Source of the DNA: an uncultured virus (IMG/VR IMGVR_UViG_3300034110_001238)
Taxonomy: Duplodnaviria > Heunggongvirae > Uroviricota > Caudoviricetes
IMG/VR virus record: IMGVR_UViG_3300034110_001238
Direction: 5' to 3' (one strand)
Length of the DNA stretch: 64,000 bases
Made by a program: the position numbers and the translations under genes. The notes below the pieces were generated by a model, which was not told where the DNA came from, did not search any database, and saw only the letters and a program-made list of their open reading frames with translations. Positions 2,410 through 50,726 of this stretch are shown piece after piece. Within the stretch, counting starts at the first letter, position 1, and every line of letters begins with the position of its first letter.

Positions 2410-4761
2410 TTAACTTGGTGAGTTTCTATTTTTTCTTGGTTTTACTACAACTGAAAGATCAGGTCTTGATGTCAAGAACTTTTCTCGCAACGTAACCAAA
2501 TCCAATTCACGGTCTTCTTTTGACATCTTTTTAACACCGTCTAAAAACTCAATCGCATGGGTTTTGTCATCGTCTTTAATATTCAAAGAGCTAACCAAAG
2601 CATGTAGATCAGTTTTAACACCTTTGACAGCATCCACATTGATTTGGTTTACACAATCACTCATAGACTTCCAAAATTGATAGTAAGGAAGCTTAACCAT
2701 AAACATGCTAGATCCTTCAACTACAAAACCTTCCATGTGTCTTTTTGTTTTGAAAGCTGATTCATTAGTCAGTGCATTAAAAAACTTTTCAAAACCTTCA
2801 AAGTTATTAAAGCTTACAAATTTTTTCTTTGCATCAAAAGCTTCAAAATGCCCAGCAAAGGCTTCCAAGTTTTCATAAGTCAATTGTGTTAGAACAACAT
2901 CACGTTTCACTACCGCCAATAATACAATAGAACTCTTTTCTGGCTTAATGATATTTGATTCATTCTTAGCATCAATGACTTCAAAAATATAGTTAACATT
3001 GTGTTTATTTGCAAACACTTTCATAAATTCAAGTTCGCTTGATTTAAGATTGCTCAAAATCAATTGTTTGAAATCTTCTGCTTCAGCGGTATCAATACCA
3101 TATTTAGATGTAAACACCAATGAAGTGTTTTCAACATCATACCCAATCATGGCTAAGCGACCATCTTCTTGTTCAAATACATTCAAAGCCCCAGTTTCTT
3201 TTGCTTTGATAGCATCTAATGTATTATCAGCCACATCTTTTTCATTTAATTCATAAAATTTATCAAAACCTCGTGTGACGATATCCCCTGTTTTATTGTT
3301 CACGACAAGTCCACGAATCTTAACAGACGATTTCTGGATGTTTGATTCAACGACATCATGACTAAAATTAAATGTAGATAAATGTGGTTTTGAGATAGAT
3401 ACAGTTTCCACCAATAATTTATTGTCTCTCAAATCCTGAAGCAATTCCATACCACTCTTATGACCATCTACTTTACGGTTTAAAAAATGAGCAAGAGCAC
3501 CTTCTGGTTCAGCATTACCAAACATACCCGCTTCTTTTTCCATTTTAAGCACTTCTTCTTTGTTAAATACTTTATTGGTAATGTAGACTCCATTGAAGCC
3601 TTCGCGGCTTACTCTTAACACCGGCAAGCTACCACCGTATTCAACATCAGCTTCCAGTGCAAAGCTTTTAGGATAACTATTGAAATCTAGTTTGTGTTGA
3701 TTTCTATGACCATGAACCTGATACCATTCATTGTCTTTATTTTGTTCATTAAACTTACCATCAACGTCATAACTGTATGGGCCATAACCACGCATATATT
3801 CATCATCAGCCAAAAGACGTGGAAATTCAGGAACAGCCGTCAAACCAGCATGTGTGGTCATGATTTTTTTTCCATTGTATTGAATAAAGCTAAATAACTG
3901 CATTTTACGATACAATTCTTTCATATCTTCTTTTGTAAATCCTGCTTTTTCAAGTTGTGGCAATGTTTTATTCATAAATTCATCGGGTGGTGTGTAGATA
4001 TCATGACTGTAGTTATACATATGCTTCTCATGATTACCAGCAAGAATTAATACGTTAGGGTATTCAAGATATTTTCGAACAAAGTGAAGGCACTTATCGT
4101 TTTCAATGCCACGATCAAGATAATCACCGACAAAAATATAAAATTCATCTTTTTTGAAACCGCCTTCCTTTTCAAAATATTTTTTCAATGGATAAAATGA
4201 ACCTTGAAGATCACCGATGTAATGGATCTTCTTGTAACCACTTAAATCAATCATTAAGTCTTCTGGTGAAGCTTTAACAAACTTAATAGCAGCTTCTGGT
4301 GTAATAATTTTCGTCATGTCATTGAATGATGCATTCTGAAACAATTCGTAGTTTCTATCAATCGCATCTTTTGGCAATCTTTTGTAAGGTTCACGTTGAT
4401 CGTTACGAGCGTAATAAAATTCAATAGGTTGCAATGGGAATTGAACCACACGATAATCATAATCAAATTTTTGCAAAAGGTCCATATAAGAATCAATCGC
4501 TTTCTGGTCTTGGTTAAGATTGTCAATAAAGAGAACACCACCCATTTGAAGTCTCAATTCAAAGGCTTCCATAAATTTACCAAAAACCAAATCTTCTCGA
4601 TTGTTGGATAATACAAGGCGACCATCCATATCTGTTGCAGCTCCTGCATAAATATGACGAATAGCATCAAGAGATAAACTATGAGCATCTAATCCATGTT
4701 CTCTAATAAAAGTTGATTTACCAGTCCCCGGCATCGCTGATAAAAAGTAAACTGTTCTCAT
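2410..4761 (-). CDS. Pnkp-like protein: P-loop kinase + calcineurin-like phosphoesterase + Rnl1-like ligase domain
   Basis: AMPGTGKS; GDLQG, GDYLDRG, GNHE, HAG, HGH; RGFDKF, IFEVI, EGFVV, KLPYY. Confidence 0.85.
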   Translation of the reverse strand: MRTVYFLSAMPGTGKSTFIREHGLDAHSLSLDAIRHIYAGAATDMDGRLVLSNNREDLVFGKFMEAFELRLQMGGVLFIDNLNQDQKAIDSYMDLLQKFDYDYRVVQFPLQPIEFYYARNDQREPYKRLPKDAIDRNYELFQNASFNDMTKIITPEAAIKFVKASPEDLMIDLSGYKKIHYIGDLQGSFYPLKKYFEKEGGFKKDEFYIFVGDYLDRGIENDKCLHFVRKYLEYPNVLILAGNHEKHMYNYSHDIYTPPDEFMNKTLPQLEKAGFTKEDMKELYRKMQLFSFIQYNGKKIMTTHAGLTAVPEFPRLLADDEYMRGYGPYSYDVDGKFNEQNKDNEWYQVHGHRNQHKLDFNSYPKSFALEADVEYGGSLPVLRVSREGFNGVYITNKVFNKEEVLKMEKEAGMFGNAEPEGALAHFLNRKVDGHKSGMELLQDLRDNKLLVETVSISKPHLSTFNFSHDVVESNIQKSSVKIRGLVVNNKTGDIVTRGFDKFYELNEKDVADNTLDAIKAKETGALNVFEQEDGRLAMIGYDVENTSLVFTSKYGIDTAEAEDFKQLILSNLKSSELEFMKVFANKHNVNYIFEVIDAKNESNIIKPEKSSIVLLAVVKRDVVLTQLTYENLEAFAGHFEAFDAKKKFVSFNNFEGFEKFFNALTNESAFKTKRHMEGFVVEGSSMFMVKLPYYQFWKSMSDCVNQINVDAVKGVKTDLHALVSSLNIKDDDKTHAIEFLDGVKKMSKEDRELDLVTLREKFLTSRPDLSVVVKPRKNRNSPS

Positions 4762-4883: not shown

Positions 4884-5552
4884 ATGACTCAAGTCGCATT
4901 GAACAATTATGTAGCGGACCTGCATCGAATGGAAGAAGCATTTAAAGATACTTTTTCTAATGATAACATTGAGATGTTTGCTGCTAACATTTTAAACCAA
5001 AGAATGTTTATCTATAATATTGAAAGAAAATTGAGAGAAAGATCTCATAACTCAGCCAATCCAGATAATCATATGGCGACTTTATATAATTATCTAAATG
5101 ATTATATCGAAAACTCCCCTTCACCTTACAGAAATCTTGTCTTATTTGAAATCGATCAACTGGTTGATGATAAAAACTGTATAAGTTCAGAAGTTGAAAA
5201 ATATTTCATTCTTGAAAACTGTTCAATGACCGTGAATTTGTTTATGCATCTGTATTACAAAGAAACAGGCATTGAAATCAATCCATATGATTTAAAAGTA
5301 ACAGAAGTAGAAGAAATCTTAATGAATTTAGGTCTTAATCGAAAAATGGCTCTTAAATTTTGTGTTGCTGCCATTGCAGAATGCTTTGAAAAAGGTAACC
5401 AAAGCATTGTTAAGTCTATTGTAGGTGATAAGATGGATAAATTTTATAAATTCTATGATACCAGTGTAGCTAATCATAATACTTATGATGGTGAGGGATT
5501 TATGTTGTTGCTATTTCTAGCAACCTTTACATACATTTGTGAATCTTTTTAG
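4884..5552 (+). CDS. hypothetical protein
   Basis: ORF with AGGAG RBS before ATG 4884. Confidence 0.7.
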   Translation: MTQVALNNYVADLHRMEEAFKDTFSNDNIEMFAANILNQRMFIYNIERKLRERSHNSANPDNHMATLYNYLNDYIENSPSPYRNLVLFEIDQLVDDKNCISSEVEKYFILENCSMTVNLFMHLYYKETGIEINPYDLKVTEVEEILMNLGLNRKMALKFCVAAIAECFEKGNQSIVKSIVGDKMDKFYKFYDTSVANHNTYDGEGFMLLLFLATFTYICESF

Positions 5553-6159
5553 GACATTCCTGCTTAAACTCAGAAGCTATCTTGTTATGAAGTGGTTTAT
5601 ACTTCTCGTGAAGTTTAGACCAATCATTTTTCATGATGAGATAGTCTTTAATAACTTGATCGTATAATTCATTACAACTTTCTGGATTGATTTTATTCGT
5701 TTTGGCTATTTGTAGACCAAAATCTAGAATACGAAGAGAATGCCACAATGACTTGTAAGACACACTCAAATTAAAATCTTCTTCAACAATCAATTTTTTC
5801 TTAGCTTTGACGTAACTGTTTGAACTTTTTTGTGAGCAGCTTTCTCTTAGTTTTTCTTTGTCCAAAGTAAACCCTTCGATTTCACGACTGAGTGCTGGTG
5901 AGAGATATTTTTCTTTATGGGAAATATAGAGACATTCCAGAACTGAGATTTCATGTTCTTTTAAACGCTCTAAGAATTCTTCTTTGCTATAATTGCTGAT
6001 TTCATATTTAATATTATCTTGTTCAAACTGTTCTTGAAAGTAAGGTTTATTACTAACAATAATGAAATCAAAATCTTCTGGTGTTTTGTTTTTGTAGACA
6101 TTAGATCCATAAGGGAATACAGCAATGGCATTATATTTATCTTTCAATTCATTTATCAT
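5527..6159 (-). CDS. Pol-beta superfamily nucleotidyltransferase domain protein
   Basis: PYGSNVY...EDFDFIIV motif. Confidence 0.75.
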   Translation of the reverse strand: MINELKDKYNAIAVFPYGSNVYKNKTPEDFDFIIVSNKPYFQEQFEQDNIKYEISNYSKEEFLERLKEHEISVLECLYISHKEKYLSPALSREIEGFTLDKEKLRESCSQKSSNSYVKAKKKLIVEEDFNLSVSYKSLWHSLRILDFGLQIAKTNKINPESCNELYDQVIKDYLIMKNDWSKLHEKYKPLHNKIASEFKQECPKKIHKCM

Positions 6160-6201
6160 ACTGATCTCGTTTTCTTTTCAGTATAGCATAAAAATTGAAT
6201 A

Positions 6202-6512
6202 AAAAAAAAGAGAGCCTTTCGACTCTCTTATCATTCCTTTGGTTTTTACATCCATTAAAACAAATTTAACACTCCGTGTACATAAACTAGAACATATTCC
6301 ATCGAGCATTCTAATTCTTCTTCCTTTTCCTTGTAACAGTCCTTTATTGAGTGATTCCCTATCATCCTGATATAACCTTATATCCTTAAATCATCATCCT
6401 GATACGCTTACATCCTTGAGTCACTATTCCTTTTTTATTGTCGTCCATTACATCATCAGCCCACACTCAAAATCATTTTTCATGCAGTTATTTTTATTGT
6501 TTCCTTGCTGAC
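6202..6512 (-). ncRNA. CsrB/RsmZ-like CsrA(RsmA)-sequestering sRNA
   Basis: 15 GGA motifs in ~310 nt, some in hairpin loops (ATC-AGGAT-GAT x2, ACAC-GGA-GTGT); promoter TTGACA at 6546-6541; terminator GAGAGTC-GAAA-GGCTCTC + T-run. Confidence 0.85.
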
Positions 6513-6797
6513 AATTACATACTAACAGGATTTTATTTTATGTCAACTAGATTTATAGCATTTTGCATGGTTTTTTATTGACGCCAAAGGAATATCTTCA
6601 ATTTTATCTAAATTTTCTGTAAATAAAGTCAACATCATTATCTAATAAGTCCTTGAGTTAAAAGCAAAATTTAATAATATAAAAATTTTTATCATTGAAT
6701 ATTAAAAAGTTGTGGTTTTTTGCAATATTTTTTTTTTATTTTCTGGCGTTCTGCATGATCTCTATTTAAGGTTCTACTAATAATTGCCTACAAGTCT

Positions 6798-6815
6798 TGT
6801 AAGAGGTAGCTTACA
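6798..6815. promoter_or_regulatory. GacA/UvrY box (upstream activating sequence)
   Basis: TGTAAG-AGGTAG-CTTACA, exact match to the TGTAAG-N6-CTTACA consensus of Pseudomonas rsm sRNA genes. Confidence 0.8.
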
Positions 6816-7051
6816 AGGTATTCATCAATATACCCTCAAAATATGTGCCAACTCTCATAATATTGAATAATAATAGACGAAATACATCGTAAAATGAGAC
6901 ATGGTAGACAAACAACAAGTAACGTCAGTTGAATGGCGTCATATATTATAATGATTAAAAATATAACAATAAACACTGTTGCCGTCTTCCTTTTTGTATA
7001 AATTATGATATTAGTTTATAGAATAACATTAAAAATCTTGGAGATTAAAAT

Positions 7052-7333
7052 ATGACATTTTTAGAAAAAGTAAACGACTTATCCATTAAACTACTTGCAA
7101 TCAAAGAAAAATTTGATGGTTTGGACAGAGACGCTTTATTAAAATCAGATTTAGAAGAACTATTAAAATTAGAAGAGTTGTTGAATTTTTACATCAATAC
7201 AGTGGTTGAATTAGTCATTGAGGAAAATGCTGAATTTGTTAAAGACAATAAAGAACTTGTTAAAAAGATTTTCATTAACGTTGATGAGTTTGTGAAGAAG
7301 GTAAATGACAATATGAATGCAGAATACTTCTAA
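7052..7333 (+). CDS. hypothetical protein
   Basis: ORF with GGAG RBS. Confidence 0.7.
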   Translation: MTFLEKVNDLSIKLLAIKEKFDGLDRDALLKSDLEELLKLEELLNFYINTVVELVIEENAEFVKDNKELVKKIFINVDEFVKKVNDNMNAEYF

Positions 7334-7390: not shown

Positions 7391-7849
7391 ATGTCTAAAC
7401 TAATTGAAAACCCATACAACGTATTGATTACATTAAGTGCTAAAATAATATACGACTTAAAAATTAAAGAAGATAACTGGTTAAAGGTTATTGAATTTGT
7501 TAAAGGTCACGTCAATGCGAATGTGAAAAACGAAGGTTATGCACTAAAACTTATAAAAGAACAAATCAGTGAAGTGGACGCAAACTGTTTCAAGCTATTT
7601 GTAAACGAGTTCAACGCAACAATAGATGTCAAAAAATGTTATTTCAAACTCATTGATTGGATACTACAAATTAATTTGAAAAGACAAAGACTTTCTAAAT
7701 CCGTTAACAAGAAGACAGTAGCTAAACATATCATAAAAGAAGAGTTGTTTGAAGCCAATAAGCATTTTACAGATAAAAAATTGGTTGCCACTATTAATGT
7801 AGACAAAATTATTGATGTCAGTATCAACTCTTACATTAAAACAGCATGA
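7391..7849 (+). CDS. hypothetical protein
   Basis: ORF with AAGGTG RBS and downstream terminator. Confidence 0.7.
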   Translation: MSKLIENPYNVLITLSAKIIYDLKIKEDNWLKVIEFVKGHVNANVKNEGYALKLIKEQISEVDANCFKLFVNEFNATIDVKKCYFKLIDWILQINLKRQRLSKSVNKKTVAKHIIKEELFEANKHFTDKKLVATINVDKIIDVSINSYIKTA

Positions 7850-17765: not shown

Positions 17766-17850
17766 GCGGATGTGGCGAAACTGGTAAACGCGACTGTCTC
17801 AAACACAGTTTCTATAATGATTGTGAGTTCAAGTCTCACCTTCCGCACCA
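17766..17850 (+). tRNA. tRNA-Leu(CAA), slightly divergent
   Basis: Cloverleaf, ACTGT-CTCAAAC-ACAGT, one T-T mismatch in acceptor, ACCA end. Confidence 0.85.
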
Positions 17851-17949
17851 AATAAAGATTTAAAATTGGGTTGCTCCGGTTCCCACTGGAAACTTTGAAA
17901 CATAGTAATTATTAGCTTGTAACTCACTATTATCAAAGTCAAACCCCTG

Positions 17950-18033
17950 ATGAGTATGATGTAATGGTAGCCATAATGTCTTCGCTTAGACATGCCCCAT
18001 AAAGGCGTAAGGGTTCGAGTCCCTTTACTCATT
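17950..18033 (+). ncRNA. tRNA-like RNA with aberrant 8-nt anticodon loop, no encoded CCA
   Basis: ATGAGTA/TACTCAT acceptor, D arm, ATGTC-TTCGCTTA-GACAT, long variable arm, AAGGG-TTCGAGT-CCCTT. Confidence 0.65.
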
Positions 18034-18040
18034 AAGATAT

Positions 18041-18124
18041 GCGATTGTGGTGGAATGGTATACACGTTGGTCTAAGAAGCCAATGCCGCAAGGATTGAGA
18101 GTTCAAGTCTCTCCAATCGCACCA
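18041..18124 (+). tRNA. tRNA-Leu(AAG)
   Basis: TTGGT-CTAAGAA-GCCAA; full cloverleaf; ACCA. Confidence 0.9.
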
Positions 18125-18156
18125 GATTTATAGTAAGATATGTAGCTACAACATAA

Positions 18157-18240
18157 GCCCCGATGGCGGAATGGTAGACGCGGCGGATTCAAAATCCGTT
18201 TCCGAAAGGAGTGGGAGTTCGAGTCTCCCTCGGGGCACCA
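18157..18240 (+). tRNA. tRNA-Leu(CAA)
   Basis: GCGGA-TTCAAAA-TCCGT; ACCA. Confidence 0.95.
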
Positions 18241-18262
18241 AATTGATGTAAAGAAATATCAC

Positions 18263-18346
18263 GCGGAAGTGATGAAATGGTAGACGTGCTGGCCTTAGAA
18301 GCCAGTGTCGAGAGACGTGTGGGTTCGAGTCCCACCTTCCGCACCA
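18263..18346 (+). tRNA. tRNA-Leu(TAG)
   Basis: CTGGC-CTTAGAA-GCCAG; ACCA. Confidence 0.95.
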
Positions 18347-18350
18347 GATT

Positions 18351-18500
18351 GCTTAAATGATGGAATGGTAGACATAGGGTGATAGCCCTGTCATTACAGG
18401 TTCGAATCCTGTTATTAGTATCTTACTAATATGGCGGAACGGTAGACGCGATGGACATTGAGTCCATGACTTGTAGGTTCGACTCCTACTTTAAGCGACA
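18351..18500 (+). ncRNA. double (domain-swapped) tRNA-like RNA with two D arms and two T arms
   Basis: GCTTAAA(18351-57) pairs with TTTAAGC(18490-96); internal TATTAGTA-TCT-TACTAATA hairpin lies between T arm 1 and D arm 2. Confidence 0.75.
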
Positions 18501-18506
18501 AATTAT

Positions 18507-18590
18507 GCGTTAGTGGTGGAATGGTATACACGCTGGTCTAAGAAGCCAGTGCCGAAAGGATTGTGAGTTCGAGTCTCACCTAACGCACCA
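18507..18590 (+). tRNA. tRNA-Leu(AAG)
   Basis: CTGGT-CTAAGAA-GCCAG; ACCA. Confidence 0.9.
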
Positions 18591-18601
18591 AATTTAGATA
18601 T

Positions 18602-18687
18602 GCCCGAATGGTGAAATTGGTAGTACACAGGAGACTTAAAATCTCCCGCTGAAAGGCGTGTCGGTTCGAGTCCGACTTCGGGTACCA
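18602..18687 (+). tRNA. tRNA-Leu(TAA)
   Basis: GGAGA-CTTAAAA-TCTCC; ACCA. Confidence 0.95.
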
Positions 18688-18701
18688 AATTATGAGTTAC
18701 T

Positions 18702-18786
18702 GCGGAAGTGATGAAATGGTAGCACATGCTGGTTTCAGAAACCAGTGCCGCGAGGCGTGTGGGTTCGAGTCCCATCTTCCGTACCA
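18702..18786 (+). tRNA. tRNA-Leu(CAG)
   Basis: CTGGT-TTCAGAA-ACCAG; ACCA. Confidence 0.95.
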
Positions 18787-18797
18787 GATTTAGATAT

Positions 18798-18883
18798 GCC
18801 CGAATGGTGAAATTGGTAGTACACAGGAGATTCAAAATCTCCCGCTGAAAAGCGTGTCGGTTCGAGTCCGACTTCGGGTACCA
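18798..18883 (+). tRNA. tRNA-Leu(CAA)
   Basis: GGAGA-TTCAAAA-TCTCC; ACCA. Confidence 0.95.
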
Positions 18884-18901
18884 GATTGTACATGTGTTTA
18901 T

Positions 18902-18986
18902 CCCCGGATGGTGGAATTGGTAGACACAGGAGACTTAAAATCTCCCGCCGAAAGGCGTGCCGGTTCGAGTCCGGCTCCGGGGACCA
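18902..18986 (+). tRNA. tRNA-Leu(TAA)
   Basis: GGAGA-CTTAAAA-TCTCC; ACCA. Confidence 0.95.
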
Positions 18987-18990
18987 GATT

Positions 18991-19088
18991 TAATTCAATA
19001 TCGAAGGTTCGAATCCTTTTCTCGTGTTTGCACGGGGTGGTGGAGTGGTAGACACGTTTGCTGAAATGCATTCTAAAATATTGAATTA
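18991..19088 (+). ncRNA. circularly permuted tRNA-like RNA (T arm - closed acceptor - D arm; YrlA-like topology)
   Basis: GAAGG-TTCGAAT-CCTTT, TCTCGTG-TTTG-CACGGGG, TG, GTG-GAGTGGTAGA-CAC, closed by TAATTCAATAT/ATATTGAATTA. Confidence 0.75.
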
Positions 19089-19097
19089 CTTTTTTAT

Positions 19098-19181
19098 GCC
19101 CGAATGGCGAAATGGTAGACGCGGGGGACTTAAAATCCCCTTCCTTCGGGAGTGACGGTTCGAGTCCGTCTTCGGGCACCA
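19098..19181 (+). tRNA. tRNA-Leu(TAA)
   Basis: GGGGA-CTTAAAA-TCCCC; ACCA. Confidence 0.95.
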
Positions 19182-19216
19182 ACTTTATGTTTTATTTCTT
19201 ACAAAGGTATTTAAAC

Positions 19217-19561
19217 ATGACAAACTCAGCCAAAGGTAAAATTGTTATCGTTAATTTGTATGACAATCGTTATTGGAATATCTTCCTTGATGGCGAACTG
19301 GTTGCAGAGCCACATAAAGAAGATTTTACTGATTATGTCTTTAAACGTTCTATTCGAAAAGAATGGGCCGATATTGCTGGTGTTGATGAAACTGATTTGA
19401 GTTACAGTTTAATTGATTTATATGAACATGAAGATAGTATTCCTGATTATGATGCCAATGATTTTGAAGACTATCAAGATTTGATAACCTGTTGCAAAAA
19501 TAATAATATAGATTTTATCTTTGAAAATGTTGATTTAAACTATATTGAAAAGAAGTATTAA
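19217..19561 (+). CDS. small acidic hypothetical protein inside the tRNA array
   Basis: AAGGT RBS before ATG 19217; the longer ORF call overlaps a tRNA. Confidence 0.7.
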   Translation: MTNSAKGKIVIVNLYDNRYWNIFLDGELVAEPHKEDFTDYVFKRSIRKEWADIAGVDETDLSYSLIDLYEHEDSIPDYDANDFEDYQDLITCCKNNNIDFIFENVDLNYIEKKY

Positions 19562-19568
19562 TGTCTAT

Positions 19569-19652
19569 GCGGAAATGGTGGAATGGTAGACACGCTGGTC
19601 TTAGAAGCCAGTGCCGAAAGGCGTGTGGGTTCGAGTCCCACTTTCCGCACCA
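19569..19652 (+). tRNA. tRNA-Leu(TAG)
   Basis: CTGGT-CTTAGAA-GCCAG; ACCA. Confidence 0.95.
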
Positions 19653-49202: not shown

Positions 49203-50726
49203 TTACATTTTTTTTCTGTTTAACTGAGAGCTACGAACACTTTCTATGGTCGTATACGTCATTTTAACTTTTTTTACTGGGCGATGGAGTGTGCTGAATA
49301 TAAACGCTTCTCCACAATCCAGTTCTTTTAAAGCCTTTTTATTAAATAGACCTTTCTTATCAACCATATGGTCAAAAATTTTTATTTTTAACGCATCTGG
49401 GTATTCATCATATTCTTTCATTAATACAAACGTTTTTGATTCAATCACACATTTAGGAATCATTAATGATCTATGCCAGTGACCATAAAATTTATAAATA
49501 TAATTAATGGCTTCATGATTGGTTTCTTTGAAAATATAATCAACTAACTGATGTGATGTAGAATAATCTATTTCTTTATAAATAATGTTTTGAATATTTT
49601 GAACACCTTTAAATTTGCGAGCAACATGCTCAATATTCCCCACAATCAAGGCAACCAAATTAGAGCAGTAATCGGGATCTTTCTCTAAACATGGGAACAT
49701 AACATTCAAGAGTTTACGTTGATAAAAAACTTTGTCCATTTTCACTTGTGGGTTAATGGAAAAAACAAAAGGATGATTGAGAATTATATCAACAGTTTTT
49801 CGAGCTTGCATACAATTCATAACATGTTTTTTAATCGCTTTACGCTCATCCAAGTCCACTAACTCAGTGAGGTAACTTTCAATTTGTAACCATGCAGATT
49901 TGAATAAATCATGGGTTAAGAAAAGTTTTAAATTCTCTAAATTTAAAAAGGATTCTAAGTTGTCAAAAGATACTAGTCCATCATTCGATTTAATACATTC
50001 ACATAGGGCATTAATGACTGCACCTATTTTTTGACCAAATAATATCATAAAGAGTTCTTCATCACCGATGATATCGTTAATCGGATCAATGGTATTAGAC
50101 ATATTCTCATCTACACCCATAAAATTTAAGACATAAAAATCCTCATTTCGTTTAGCATGCGTAACGGCAGAATATAACTTCCAGAAGGTTGAATGACCGC
50201 CATCACCATTCAAGATGATGGCTCCTTCTTGGTTATTGACGTAATTATTTAATAATGAAAATATACTTTCATCACTTCCCGATCCTGTAGAACCACTGAT
50301 GTAAAGTGGATATTGATTAATATTCCAAGGCTTTTCAGGAGATGAAAAAAAAGTTTTATCTTGTATTTCTTTAGCTATGACATACGATTGTCTTTCTTTT
50401 TTCTCAAAATATTTAAATTCATCGACTATACGATCAGATGGCACAAATTTAAAAGGCATTTGTTTTGTTAGATCATCAATGTTTTCAAGAACACGTTTGA
50501 TTTCAGCCAATTTTTGATTCTTGTGGAAATTAGTATATTGAGCGTCTTGTGTTTTTAATTCGCGTTCGTATTCAAACCAAGTATTATAGCCCTTTATTTT
50601 GGCAATATATTCTTTGGCTTGACTTAAATTTTTGATGGGAATGGTGGGCATATCACCGGATAGATTTTCTTTGGCTATTTTTAATAGACGTGCAGCGTCT
50701 TTCTTGGCAATGTCAAAATTACTCAT
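49203..50726 (-). CDS. Glyoxalase_8-like N-domain fused to degenerate IcmO/DotL-like coupling-protein domain
   Basis: AKKDAARL...IAKIKGYNTW; GSTGSGSDE, VLNFM, SNTIDP, PCLEKDPD. Confidence 0.65.
   Translation of the reverse strand: MSNFDIAKKDAARLLKIAKENLSGDMPTIPIKNLSQAKEYIAKIKGYNTWFEYERELKTQDAQYTNFHKNQKLAEIKRVLENIDDLTKQMPFKFVPSDRIVDEFKYFEKKERQSYVIAKEIQDKTFFSSPEKPWNINQYPLYISGSTGSGSDESIFSLLNNYVNNQEGAIILNGDGGHSTFWKLYSAVTHAKRNEDFYVLNFMGVDENMSNTIDPINDIIGDEELFMILFGQKIGAVINALCECIKSNDGLVSFDNLESFLNLENLKLFLTHDLFKSAWLQIESYLTELVDLDERKAIKKHVMNCMQARKTVDIILNHPFVFSINPQVKMDKVFYQRKLLNVMFPCLEKDPDYCSNLVALIVGNIEHVARKFKGVQNIQNIIYKEIDYSTSHQLVDYIFKETNHEAINYIYKFYGHWHRSLMIPKCVIESKTFVLMKEYDEYPDALKIKIFDHMVDKKGLFNKKALKELDCGEAFIFSTLHRPVKKVKMTYTTIESVRSSQLNRKKM

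Follow-up and report, generated by a model that had tools for sequence, protein, structure and literature searches.

Introduction

In Escherichia coli and Salmonella, the sponge RNA CsrB (RF00018) is a stand-alone transcript of about 300-370 nt that ends in a Rho-independent terminator. The UvrY binding site of csrB is an inverted repeat of 18 nt, located far upstream and centred at -183/-182, which is followed after 5 bp by a partly conserved TGTAGGAGA, and an IHF site is located between repeat and promoter (PMC4682653). TGTAAG-N6-CTTACA is described as the consensus of the UvrY/GacA box, and this box accompanies the GGA-rich sponge RNAs RsmX, RsmY and RsmZ of Pseudomonas and CsrB1 and CsrB2 of Shewanella oneidensis (PMC3171408). 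Here, we analyze a 64,000-nt stretch of DNA from an uncultured virus (IMG/VR record IMGVR_UViG_3300034110_001238; the whole stretch is called the window), whose minus strand is predicted to encode a GGA-rich RNA at 6512..~6201 with a box of this kind upstream. We propose that it probably represents a new sequence family among the Csr-type sponge RNAs.

Proteins of this network are already known from mobile elements, namely plasmids, phages and ICEs. csrA alleles are reported on 161 of 20668 plasmids and 30 of 2517 phages (PMC7366521), and CsrA-family proteins of mobile elements, e.g., RsmQ of plasmid pQBR103, act on the translation control of the host (PMC9928087). Non-coding RNAs are reported for phage phiKZ, without a link to RsmA in the part of the source available (PMC8545117). 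A phage- or plasmid-encoded Csr sponge RNA was not found described in the literature, as judged from titles and the first lines of abstracts with partial coverage.

The predicted small-RNA gene and its relatives

The RNA gene is located in a gene-free gap of 892 nt (6160-7051), the largest such gap listed for the window. Its prediction, at about 310 nt with 15 GGA motifs, draws on the sequence itself, GGA statistics, homologues and contigs from RNA libraries. Transcription would start behind a sigma-70-type promoter, TTGACA-16 nt-TG-n-TAGTAT (6546..6519, minus strand; score 10/12, with a TG before the second hexamer), and would end at an intrinsic terminator (6229..6208, minus strand), a stem-loop of nine pairs (four G-C) with a loop of 4 and a T run at ~6207-6198. 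A first-pass annotation of the sequence had claimed a minus-strand unit of about 310 nt with promoter and terminator and without an ORF. The unit is indeed present at this place and no gene occupies the gap; the ORFs within the RNA measure at most 47 amino acids, those starting with ATG 16-36, and they are not conserved among relatives.

Relatives were located with the neighbouring nucleotidyltransferase-like protein (5527-6159) as query. They comprise an IMG/VR record of 181 kb (L001) and a metagenome contig of 1,859,102 bp (L125), each with a neighbour protein of 98% identity, a 114-kb contig (L126; 91%) and a 90-kb contig with a GC content of 22% (L127; 64%). L001 and L125 are identical at 5630 of 5630 bases and thus represent one sequence, so that three relatives are independent. 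A homologous RNA is found at the same locus in L125, L126 and L127, and the surrounding gene order is kept even in L127. Every relative's RNA begins with GTCAGCAA right after the same promoter type and ends in a terminator. Across the window, L125 and L126 the promoter is invariant but for two spacer positions, and a block just upstream of the -35 hexamer (6547..6600, minus strand) is nearly invariant as well; L127 has the same promoter type in front of its homologue. The terminator is kept in L125 and L126 and occurs in a shorter version in L127. Between the window and L001 the RNA is 97.4% identical, compared to 73-81% for the third codon positions of five flanking ORFs (2410-4761 to 7391-7849) and just 84% for the spacer 6561-6797.

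The homologues differ in length: 311 nt with 15 GGA in L125, 252 nt with 10 GGA in L127, and 419 nt with 21 GGA in L126 (2041-2459), where a tandem duplication has doubled an internal module of about 140 nt. Judged by this duplication, the RNA family is one that grows by module copying. The duplicated module of L126 holds an AGUGA...UCACU stem, a CAGGAUG hairpin and a AAAGGACUG...AGGAAGAAG stretch. No such RNA was found in L002, which carries a 26% relative of the neighbour gene, or in L128, and the 181-kb record holds no second copy. DNA similarity searches against isolated phages and against plasmids gave no match. In IMG/VR an exact 54-nt pattern gave 0 matches, and a motif pattern recovered only the known relative plus one coding chance match. 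The motif pattern gave at least 120 matches in species genomes, all chance-like, and blastn of the RNA against these genomes gave none better than E = 0.02; as only these chance-like matches were listed, they do not allow the absence of a cellular homologue to be claimed.

The stretch or part of it occurs in 20 of the 24 listed public sequencing runs (15 studies), one of which may be its source. Four runs were compared, all as assembled contigs. RNA run X16 holds a 273-nt contig at a depth of 55 that covers 6233-6506 with five differences and one gap, and nothing else genuine from the 1.2 kb compared. From RNA run X15, a 213-nt contig covers 6282-6480 with no differences, and its loose end of 14 nt agrees with a variant base found in the relatives. 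A third run, X6, of unrecorded type, has an 832-nt contig spanning 5900-6626 at 97.5% identity. The RNA gene is thus apparently expressed, and there is a hint of an RNA that is discrete and far more abundant than its neighbours.

Two caveats apply to the gene as drawn here. Promoter-like sites are not above chance (11 in 2.1 kb versus 12.6 in shuffles), and since such hexamer pairs are no rarer than chance in AT-rich DNA, the promoter call rests on conservation; terminator-like sites are rarer, with 2 observed versus 0.5 expected. Moreover, assembled contigs cannot show transcript ends, strand or transcription, and DNA may contaminate RNA libraries, for which reasons the RNA-library contigs are a hint and not a proof. 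We nevertheless regard it as very probable that an independent, conserved small-RNA gene is present.

GGA motifs and likeness to Csr/Rsm sponge RNAs

The first-pass annotation counted 15 GGA motifs, mostly ANGGA, and this count is correct: there are 15 in 313 nt, of which by reading 13 are A-N-GGA, 10 AGGA and 8 AAGGA. The minus strand of the window has a mean of 2.44 per 313 nt (sd 1.72), and its next best non-overlapping 313-nt stretch reaches 9. Shuffled versions of the RNA attain 15 motifs in 7 of 10000 (mononucleotide) and 10 of 5000 (dinucleotide) cases. The relatives have kept this excess, their observed counts being reached by 11, 0 and 9 of 5000 dinucleotide shuffles (L125, L126 and L127, respectively). 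Across the four homologues, i.e., the window RNA and those of the three relatives, the density is 4.0-5.0 GGA per 100 nt, with 4.8 in the window RNA. UCC is found in none of the four, an absence that is not significant because the RNA has so little C.

The RNA shares with CsrB its stand-alone organization, its size range and its terminator. E. coli K-12 CsrB has 22 GGA in 369 nt (6.0 per 100 nt). Both RNAs contain CAGGAUG motifs and a nearly identical hairpin of the a/c-AUC-AGGAU-GAUG type, uauc-AGGAU-gaug in the window RNA versus cauc-AGGAU-gaug in CsrB. A hairpin of the type U-A-U-C-AGGAU-G-A-U-A is kept in the four homologues with differing stems, of 8-9 bp in L127 and 7 bp in L126. The two RNAs also differ. 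CsrB has nine CAGGA(U/C/A)G motifs, whereas the window RNA has two CAGGAUG and one CAAGGAUG and most of its sites are AAGGA; the GC content is 51% in CsrB and 34% here; the hairpins are weak and not enriched; and the RNA is encoded on an orphan-rich giant replicon instead of a known chromosome.

There is also no detectable sequence or structure homology to CsrB, as RF00018 remains unmatched, and the same holds for the Rfam models of RsmX, RsmY and RsmZ. The Rfam search, proposed as a check in the first-pass annotation, returned only tRNAs for the window at gathering thresholds and no Csr/Rsm model; in E-value mode the sole Csr match was CsrC with 11.3 bits versus a gathering threshold of 61 (E = 1.1). 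Because no Csr/Rsm model of Rfam matches, the RNA would belong to a new sequence family rather than to a named one. The earlier designation as a CsrB/RsmZ-type sponge therefore has to be split: motif content, the transcription unit and the CsrB-like hairpin support it, but membership in these families finds no support in Rfam. By its sequence features, the RNA is probably a Csr-type sponge, and we consider titration of CsrA/RsmA its likely function.

The upstream inverted repeat

An exact 18-bp inverted repeat, TGTAAG-N6-CTTACA, lies at 6798-6815, with arms that can be extended to 8 bp each (6796-6817). A half-site-like hexamer, TGTAGG (6792-6787, minus strand), follows 5 bp downstream. The repeat had been noted in the first-pass annotation as an exact palindrome about 290 bp upstream, which agrees with the 294.5 bp that separate its centre from the predicted start. 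No second exact copy exists in the 64 kb, none arose in 100 shuffles, and from base composition we estimate about 0.007 exact copies per 64 kb. When up to two mismatches are allowed, the repeat occurs at chance level in the window (4 versus 4.0). The 181-kb record has it once at up to one mismatch and the reversed control pattern twice per strand.

In L125 and L126 the arms are identical, with one spacer change, and TGTAG is kept in both. Repeat, 5 bp and TGTAG form a conserved island of about 29 bases, with one change in the spacer and one in the 5 bp among the window, L125 and L126, while its flanks are much more diverged in the three-way alignment. By this contrast with its flanks, the palindrome is a conserved footprint. 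The centre of the repeat lies 295.5 bp from the predicted start in both L125 and L126, a shared spacing that says little, as these lineages show few indels overall.

The arrangement is that of the csrB promoter, where a far-upstream 18-bp repeat is likewise followed by 5 bp and then TGTAGG; we directly confirmed the repeat and TGTAGGAGA in the csrB sequence of E. coli K-12. The csrB repeat is centred at -183, however, and the present one at -295, and the spacer here lacks an IHF consensus. The earlier statement that the box lies further upstream than usual does not stand in that form, as the csrB repeat is also far away (-183/-182); the distance here is about 110 bp longer still. Among 401 genomes drawn evenly from the class to which an Acinetobacter genome belongs, only one carried the combined pattern of repeat, 5 bp and TGTAG, and none of 4 named gammaproteobacterial genomes had it.

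A second conserved non-coding block extends from the box to the divergent ORF 7052-7333 (6816-7051; 93% identical to L001). It contains a stretch with TATAAT and a small hairpin that is invariant in the window, L125 and L126, and a terminator-like hairpin on the plus strand (6922-6939); the whole block is missing in L127. It could be another small transcript or a control region of the divergent gene.

Carrier and host

The nature of the carrier decides whether the RNA may be called element-encoded, which is plausible. The window has a G+C content of 31.5%, and the genes that can be recognized in it are accessory-like: a kinase-phosphatase-RNA ligase fusion, Fpg, UvdE, dCMP deaminase, a class II aminoacyl-tRNA synthetase (aaRS)-like gene, GAPDH, thioredoxin reductase and Asn synthase. 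A Shine-Dalgarno motif precedes 39 of its 67 ORFs, and by our own reading of the downstream sequence many genes are followed by intrinsic-terminator-like hairpins and T runs. These two features are bacterial signals, and on them we reject a eukaryotic giant virus, a candidate raised by the AT-richness, the aaRS genes, Fpg, UvdE and the tRNA-Leu genes. Many genes also seem, by the same kind of reading, to have their own TATAAT-type promoter, and the terminator hairpin is often shared by converging genes; the strand switches often, which makes the layout of the window unusually monocistronic. According to the habitat labels of the runs, the replicon is found in lake, plant, food and dairy metagenomes, where the labels of runs with a small share do not count as evidence.

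The most serious alternative is that the RNA is an ordinary chromosomal Csr/Rsm sponge of an unrecognized AT-rich bacterium and the 1.86-Mb contig its chromosome, with csrA, gacA and gacS elsewhere. The copy on this contig is the one identical to the IMG/VR record, and the 'provirus' label of the 181-kb piece implies that it was cut from a larger contig. Both ends of that record resemble its middle, with a GC content of ~31% and the same orphan-rich gene style, so that a flank from a host cannot be seen. Further genes at these ends encode an Asp/Asn/Lys-type aaRS, RtcB and a Ser/Thr kinase. Viral evidence is limited to the provirus class that IMG/VR assigns to the record and to its CheckV figure (58%). 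Terminase_6N, the HK97-type capsid (Phage_capsid), DNA_pol_A and DNA_pol_B are absent from the 181 kb, and there are housekeeping-like genes, namely those for GAPDH, thioredoxin reductase and Asn synthase along with two of the class II aaRS-like type. A phage may nonetheless be the carrier, since the search for virion genes covered just two Pfam models and about 10% of the 1.86-Mb contig.

Against a chromosome, a Pfam family at E <= 0.001 is lacking for 50 of the 67 window ORFs and a PHROG for most proteins (with no structural PHROG among 70), which is far from known gammaproteobacterial chromosomes. The 181-kb record encodes no translational GTPase (GTP_EFTU), the relatives range down to 22% GC, and no genome of the lineage is among the matches listed in species genomes. 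In addition, an array of 11 tRNA-Leu genes stands beside RNA-repair enzymes; tRNA arrays combined with RNA-repair genes are typical of very large phages, not of cells. Weighing both sides, we consider a mobile or virus-like element moderately likely as the carrier and a cell chromosome unlikely.

The array itself (17766-19652, plus strand) comprises 13 tRNA genes, 12 of which are confirmed by Rfam. The anticodons of its 11 tRNA-Leu genes are CAA (three), TAA (three), AAG (two), TAG (two) and CAG (one); a tRNA-Gln gene and a tRNA-like one whose anticodon is called with four bases (17949-18034) complete the array. An RNA-repair toolkit surrounds the small RNA, with a 783-aa fusion of a P-loop kinase, a metallophosphatase and a T4-type RNA ligase (2410-4761, minus strand), the nucleotidyltransferase-like gene (5527-6159, minus strand) and RtcB in a related record (L003, 8791-10227, plus strand). 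A Leu-only array beside RNA-repair enzymes suggests a means of countering the cleavage or depletion of tRNA-Leu by the host.

As to the host, GacA/UvrY-type regulators are to our knowledge confined to gammaproteobacteria, and the exact UvrY/GacA-type site thus points to a host from this class. The best phage matches of three window proteins are at most 40% identical and taxonomically mixed, and for one neighbour gene the best phage protein matches all belong to phages of Firmicutes and Fusobacteria, which weighs against a gammaproteobacterial host, as we know of no GacA in Firmicutes or Fusobacteria. Atlas gave only Pseudomonadota as the commonest group for GAPDH and a weak lead to phage T4 Y00F (0.80) for a 687-aa protein. 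Of four large orphans included in a PDB sequence search, one gave a local match: the 507-aa product of 49203-50726 (minus strand) matches the Legionella type IV coupling protein DotL/IcmO over 64 residues (E 5.8e-10). This ORF remains without a Pfam family when the threshold is relaxed to E <= 1, and the match may reflect only a shared P-loop region.

Alternative readings of the site and the RNA

The palindrome might instead be an operator for a regulator of the carrier itself, or serve the divergent gene 7052-7333, and thus not be a GacA/UvrY input. Divergent units flank it on both sides, the start codon of ORF 7052-7333 being about 237 bp away, and proteins with helix-turn-helix (HTH) domains are encoded nearby, e.g., at 1482-2054 with two HTH_37 domains. 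The 295-bp distance exceeds the documented csrB case, and none of the 11 window matches to the IHF consensus falls between box and promoter (6512-6800), where the spacer carries long A-tracts. L127 keeps the RNA without the box: within 5.6 kb no box was detected at up to three mismatches beyond chance, and there are only ~145 bp of intergenic DNA. Neither a GerE-type regulator nor CsrA (PF02599) is encoded among the 67 window ORFs or in the 181-kb record. These observations weigh against a Gac-type input, or at least narrow it. With the box present at three of four homologous loci and lacking in L127, it belongs to the clade of the window rather than to the whole RNA family; with neither regulator nor CsrA encoded in the window or the 181-kb record, both partners would have to come from elsewhere. 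An operator of the element, on the other hand, would often recur, whereas the repeat is a single copy in 181 kb, and the absence of a GerE-type protein there also speaks against a regulator of its own. All 12 specified bases fit the UvrY/GacA consensus (PMC3171408), and TGTAGG stands at the 5-bp offset of csrB. A private operator is accordingly improbable in our view, and we favour, with moderate confidence, activation by a UvrY/GacA-type regulator at the repeat within the window's clade.

A real small RNA could also act in another way than as a CsrA sponge, its purine-rich motifs serving a different RNA-binding protein, the 30S subunit or base pairing. Besides the missing Rfam match and the missing CsrA gene, the AAGGA found in 8 of the 15 motifs is the core of the strong ribosome sites of this genome. 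Structural evidence for a sponge is weak. The first-pass annotation had placed several GGA motifs in small hairpin loops, which is true as a count, since 10 of 15 can be placed in loops of 4-9 nt closed by at least three pairs and 7 of 15 in those closed by at least four; as a fraction it does not exceed chance, being reached by 549 and 251 of 1000 shuffles, respectively, compared to 23 of 1000 for the E. coli CsrB control. The mean unpaired probability of GGA in the window RNA is 0.55 versus 0.57 in shuffles, and the values of the four homologues are reached by 34, 32, 10 and 5 of 60 shuffles. Its predicted fold is no stabler than that of shuffles (minimum free energy z = -0.32), and RNAalifold, with four sequences too few for covariation, retains the terminator and one conserved stem with only one compensatory pair. 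This stem encloses a GGA-bearing loop in the window and L127. Apart from this stem, the structural results lean against a sponge of the CsrB kind. What tells against another function is that motif types and density are as in CsrB, including CAGGAUG and the near-identical hairpin, that the csrB-type upstream site specifically ties the gene to a Gac/Csr circuit, and that the GGA excess persists in L127 while the remaining sequence diverges. We therefore give a non-sponge RNA little credit and retain the sponge as the preferred reading.

That the region encodes a small protein, or is the leader of the downstream nucleotidyltransferase-like gene, is highly improbable: ATG-started ORFs of 20-36 amino acids are present and gene 5527-6159, which has a weak Pfam NTP_transf_2 match, starts only 41 bp past the T run, but the 36-aa ORF has no start codon in L125 and an unrelated peptide at its place in L127, the small ORFs are hit by a 1-nt indel both in L125 and in run X16, and in every lineage RNA and gene are separated by a strong terminator and by an extended -10 promoter of the gene's own (TG-n-TATACT; 6180..6188, minus strand), so that the RNA is not its leader.

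Proposed mechanism and significance

In the model we propose, the carrier would be a very large, AT-rich and orphan-rich molecule, a giant element, mobile or virus-like, with a gammaproteobacterial host. A regulator of the BarA-UvrY/GacS-GacA type would bind the inverted repeat and the TGTAGG half-site 295 bp upstream, reach the promoter by looping of the A-tract-rich spacer and activate transcription. Each RNA would then bind several host CsrA/RsmA dimers via its GGA motifs and leave less free CsrA, which would alter the translation of CsrA-controlled mRNAs. The sponge may also free mRNAs of the carrier itself, which have strong A-rich AGGAG ribosome sites. Such an element would sense a density or metabolic signal of the host and respond by draining CsrA.

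The different parts of this model deserve different degrees of belief. Its looser form, a stand-alone Csr/Rsm-type sponge RNA gene with a UvrY/GacA-type input on a very large carrier, is the best explanation of the locus, with somewhat better than even chances. The complete form, in which a giant element (up to ~1.9 Mb) drains host CsrA with its own CsrB-type decoy under host BarA-UvrY/GacS-GacA input, is offered tentatively, because it is built from four separate judgments, very firm for the gene, weaker for titration and weaker again for both the input and the carrier. One observation on phage immunity also has to be accommodated. RsmA is a repressor of CRISPR-Cas in Serratia, and an anti-CRISPR role has been proposed for its homologues on phages (PMC8450108). 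A sponge would accordingly strengthen the immunity of the host. This effect sits badly with a lytic phage and weighs against the model in that setting; it suggests a better fit with a resident element that excludes rivals.

Like the element-borne CsrA proteins, RsmQ of pQBR103 among them, the RNA would represent a mobile element reaching into the Csr/Rsm network of its host. These proteins add CsrA activity, however, whereas the RNA would be an antagonist of opposite sign, and no csrA is found in the 64 or the 181 kb. Should the carrier turn out to be an ordinary chromosome, what remains is a new family of Csr RNAs missed by Rfam. If the model holds, it describes a strategy opposite to that of the element CsrA proteins, namely the capture of a global post-transcriptional switch at the RNA level, and Gac/Csr circuits would be copyable as an RNA plus a promoter architecture. 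The RNA may be the most abundant transcript of the replicon and hence a convenient marker. Together with the box, it gives a handle on an otherwise opaque, orphan-rich replicon and points to a gammaproteobacterial host.

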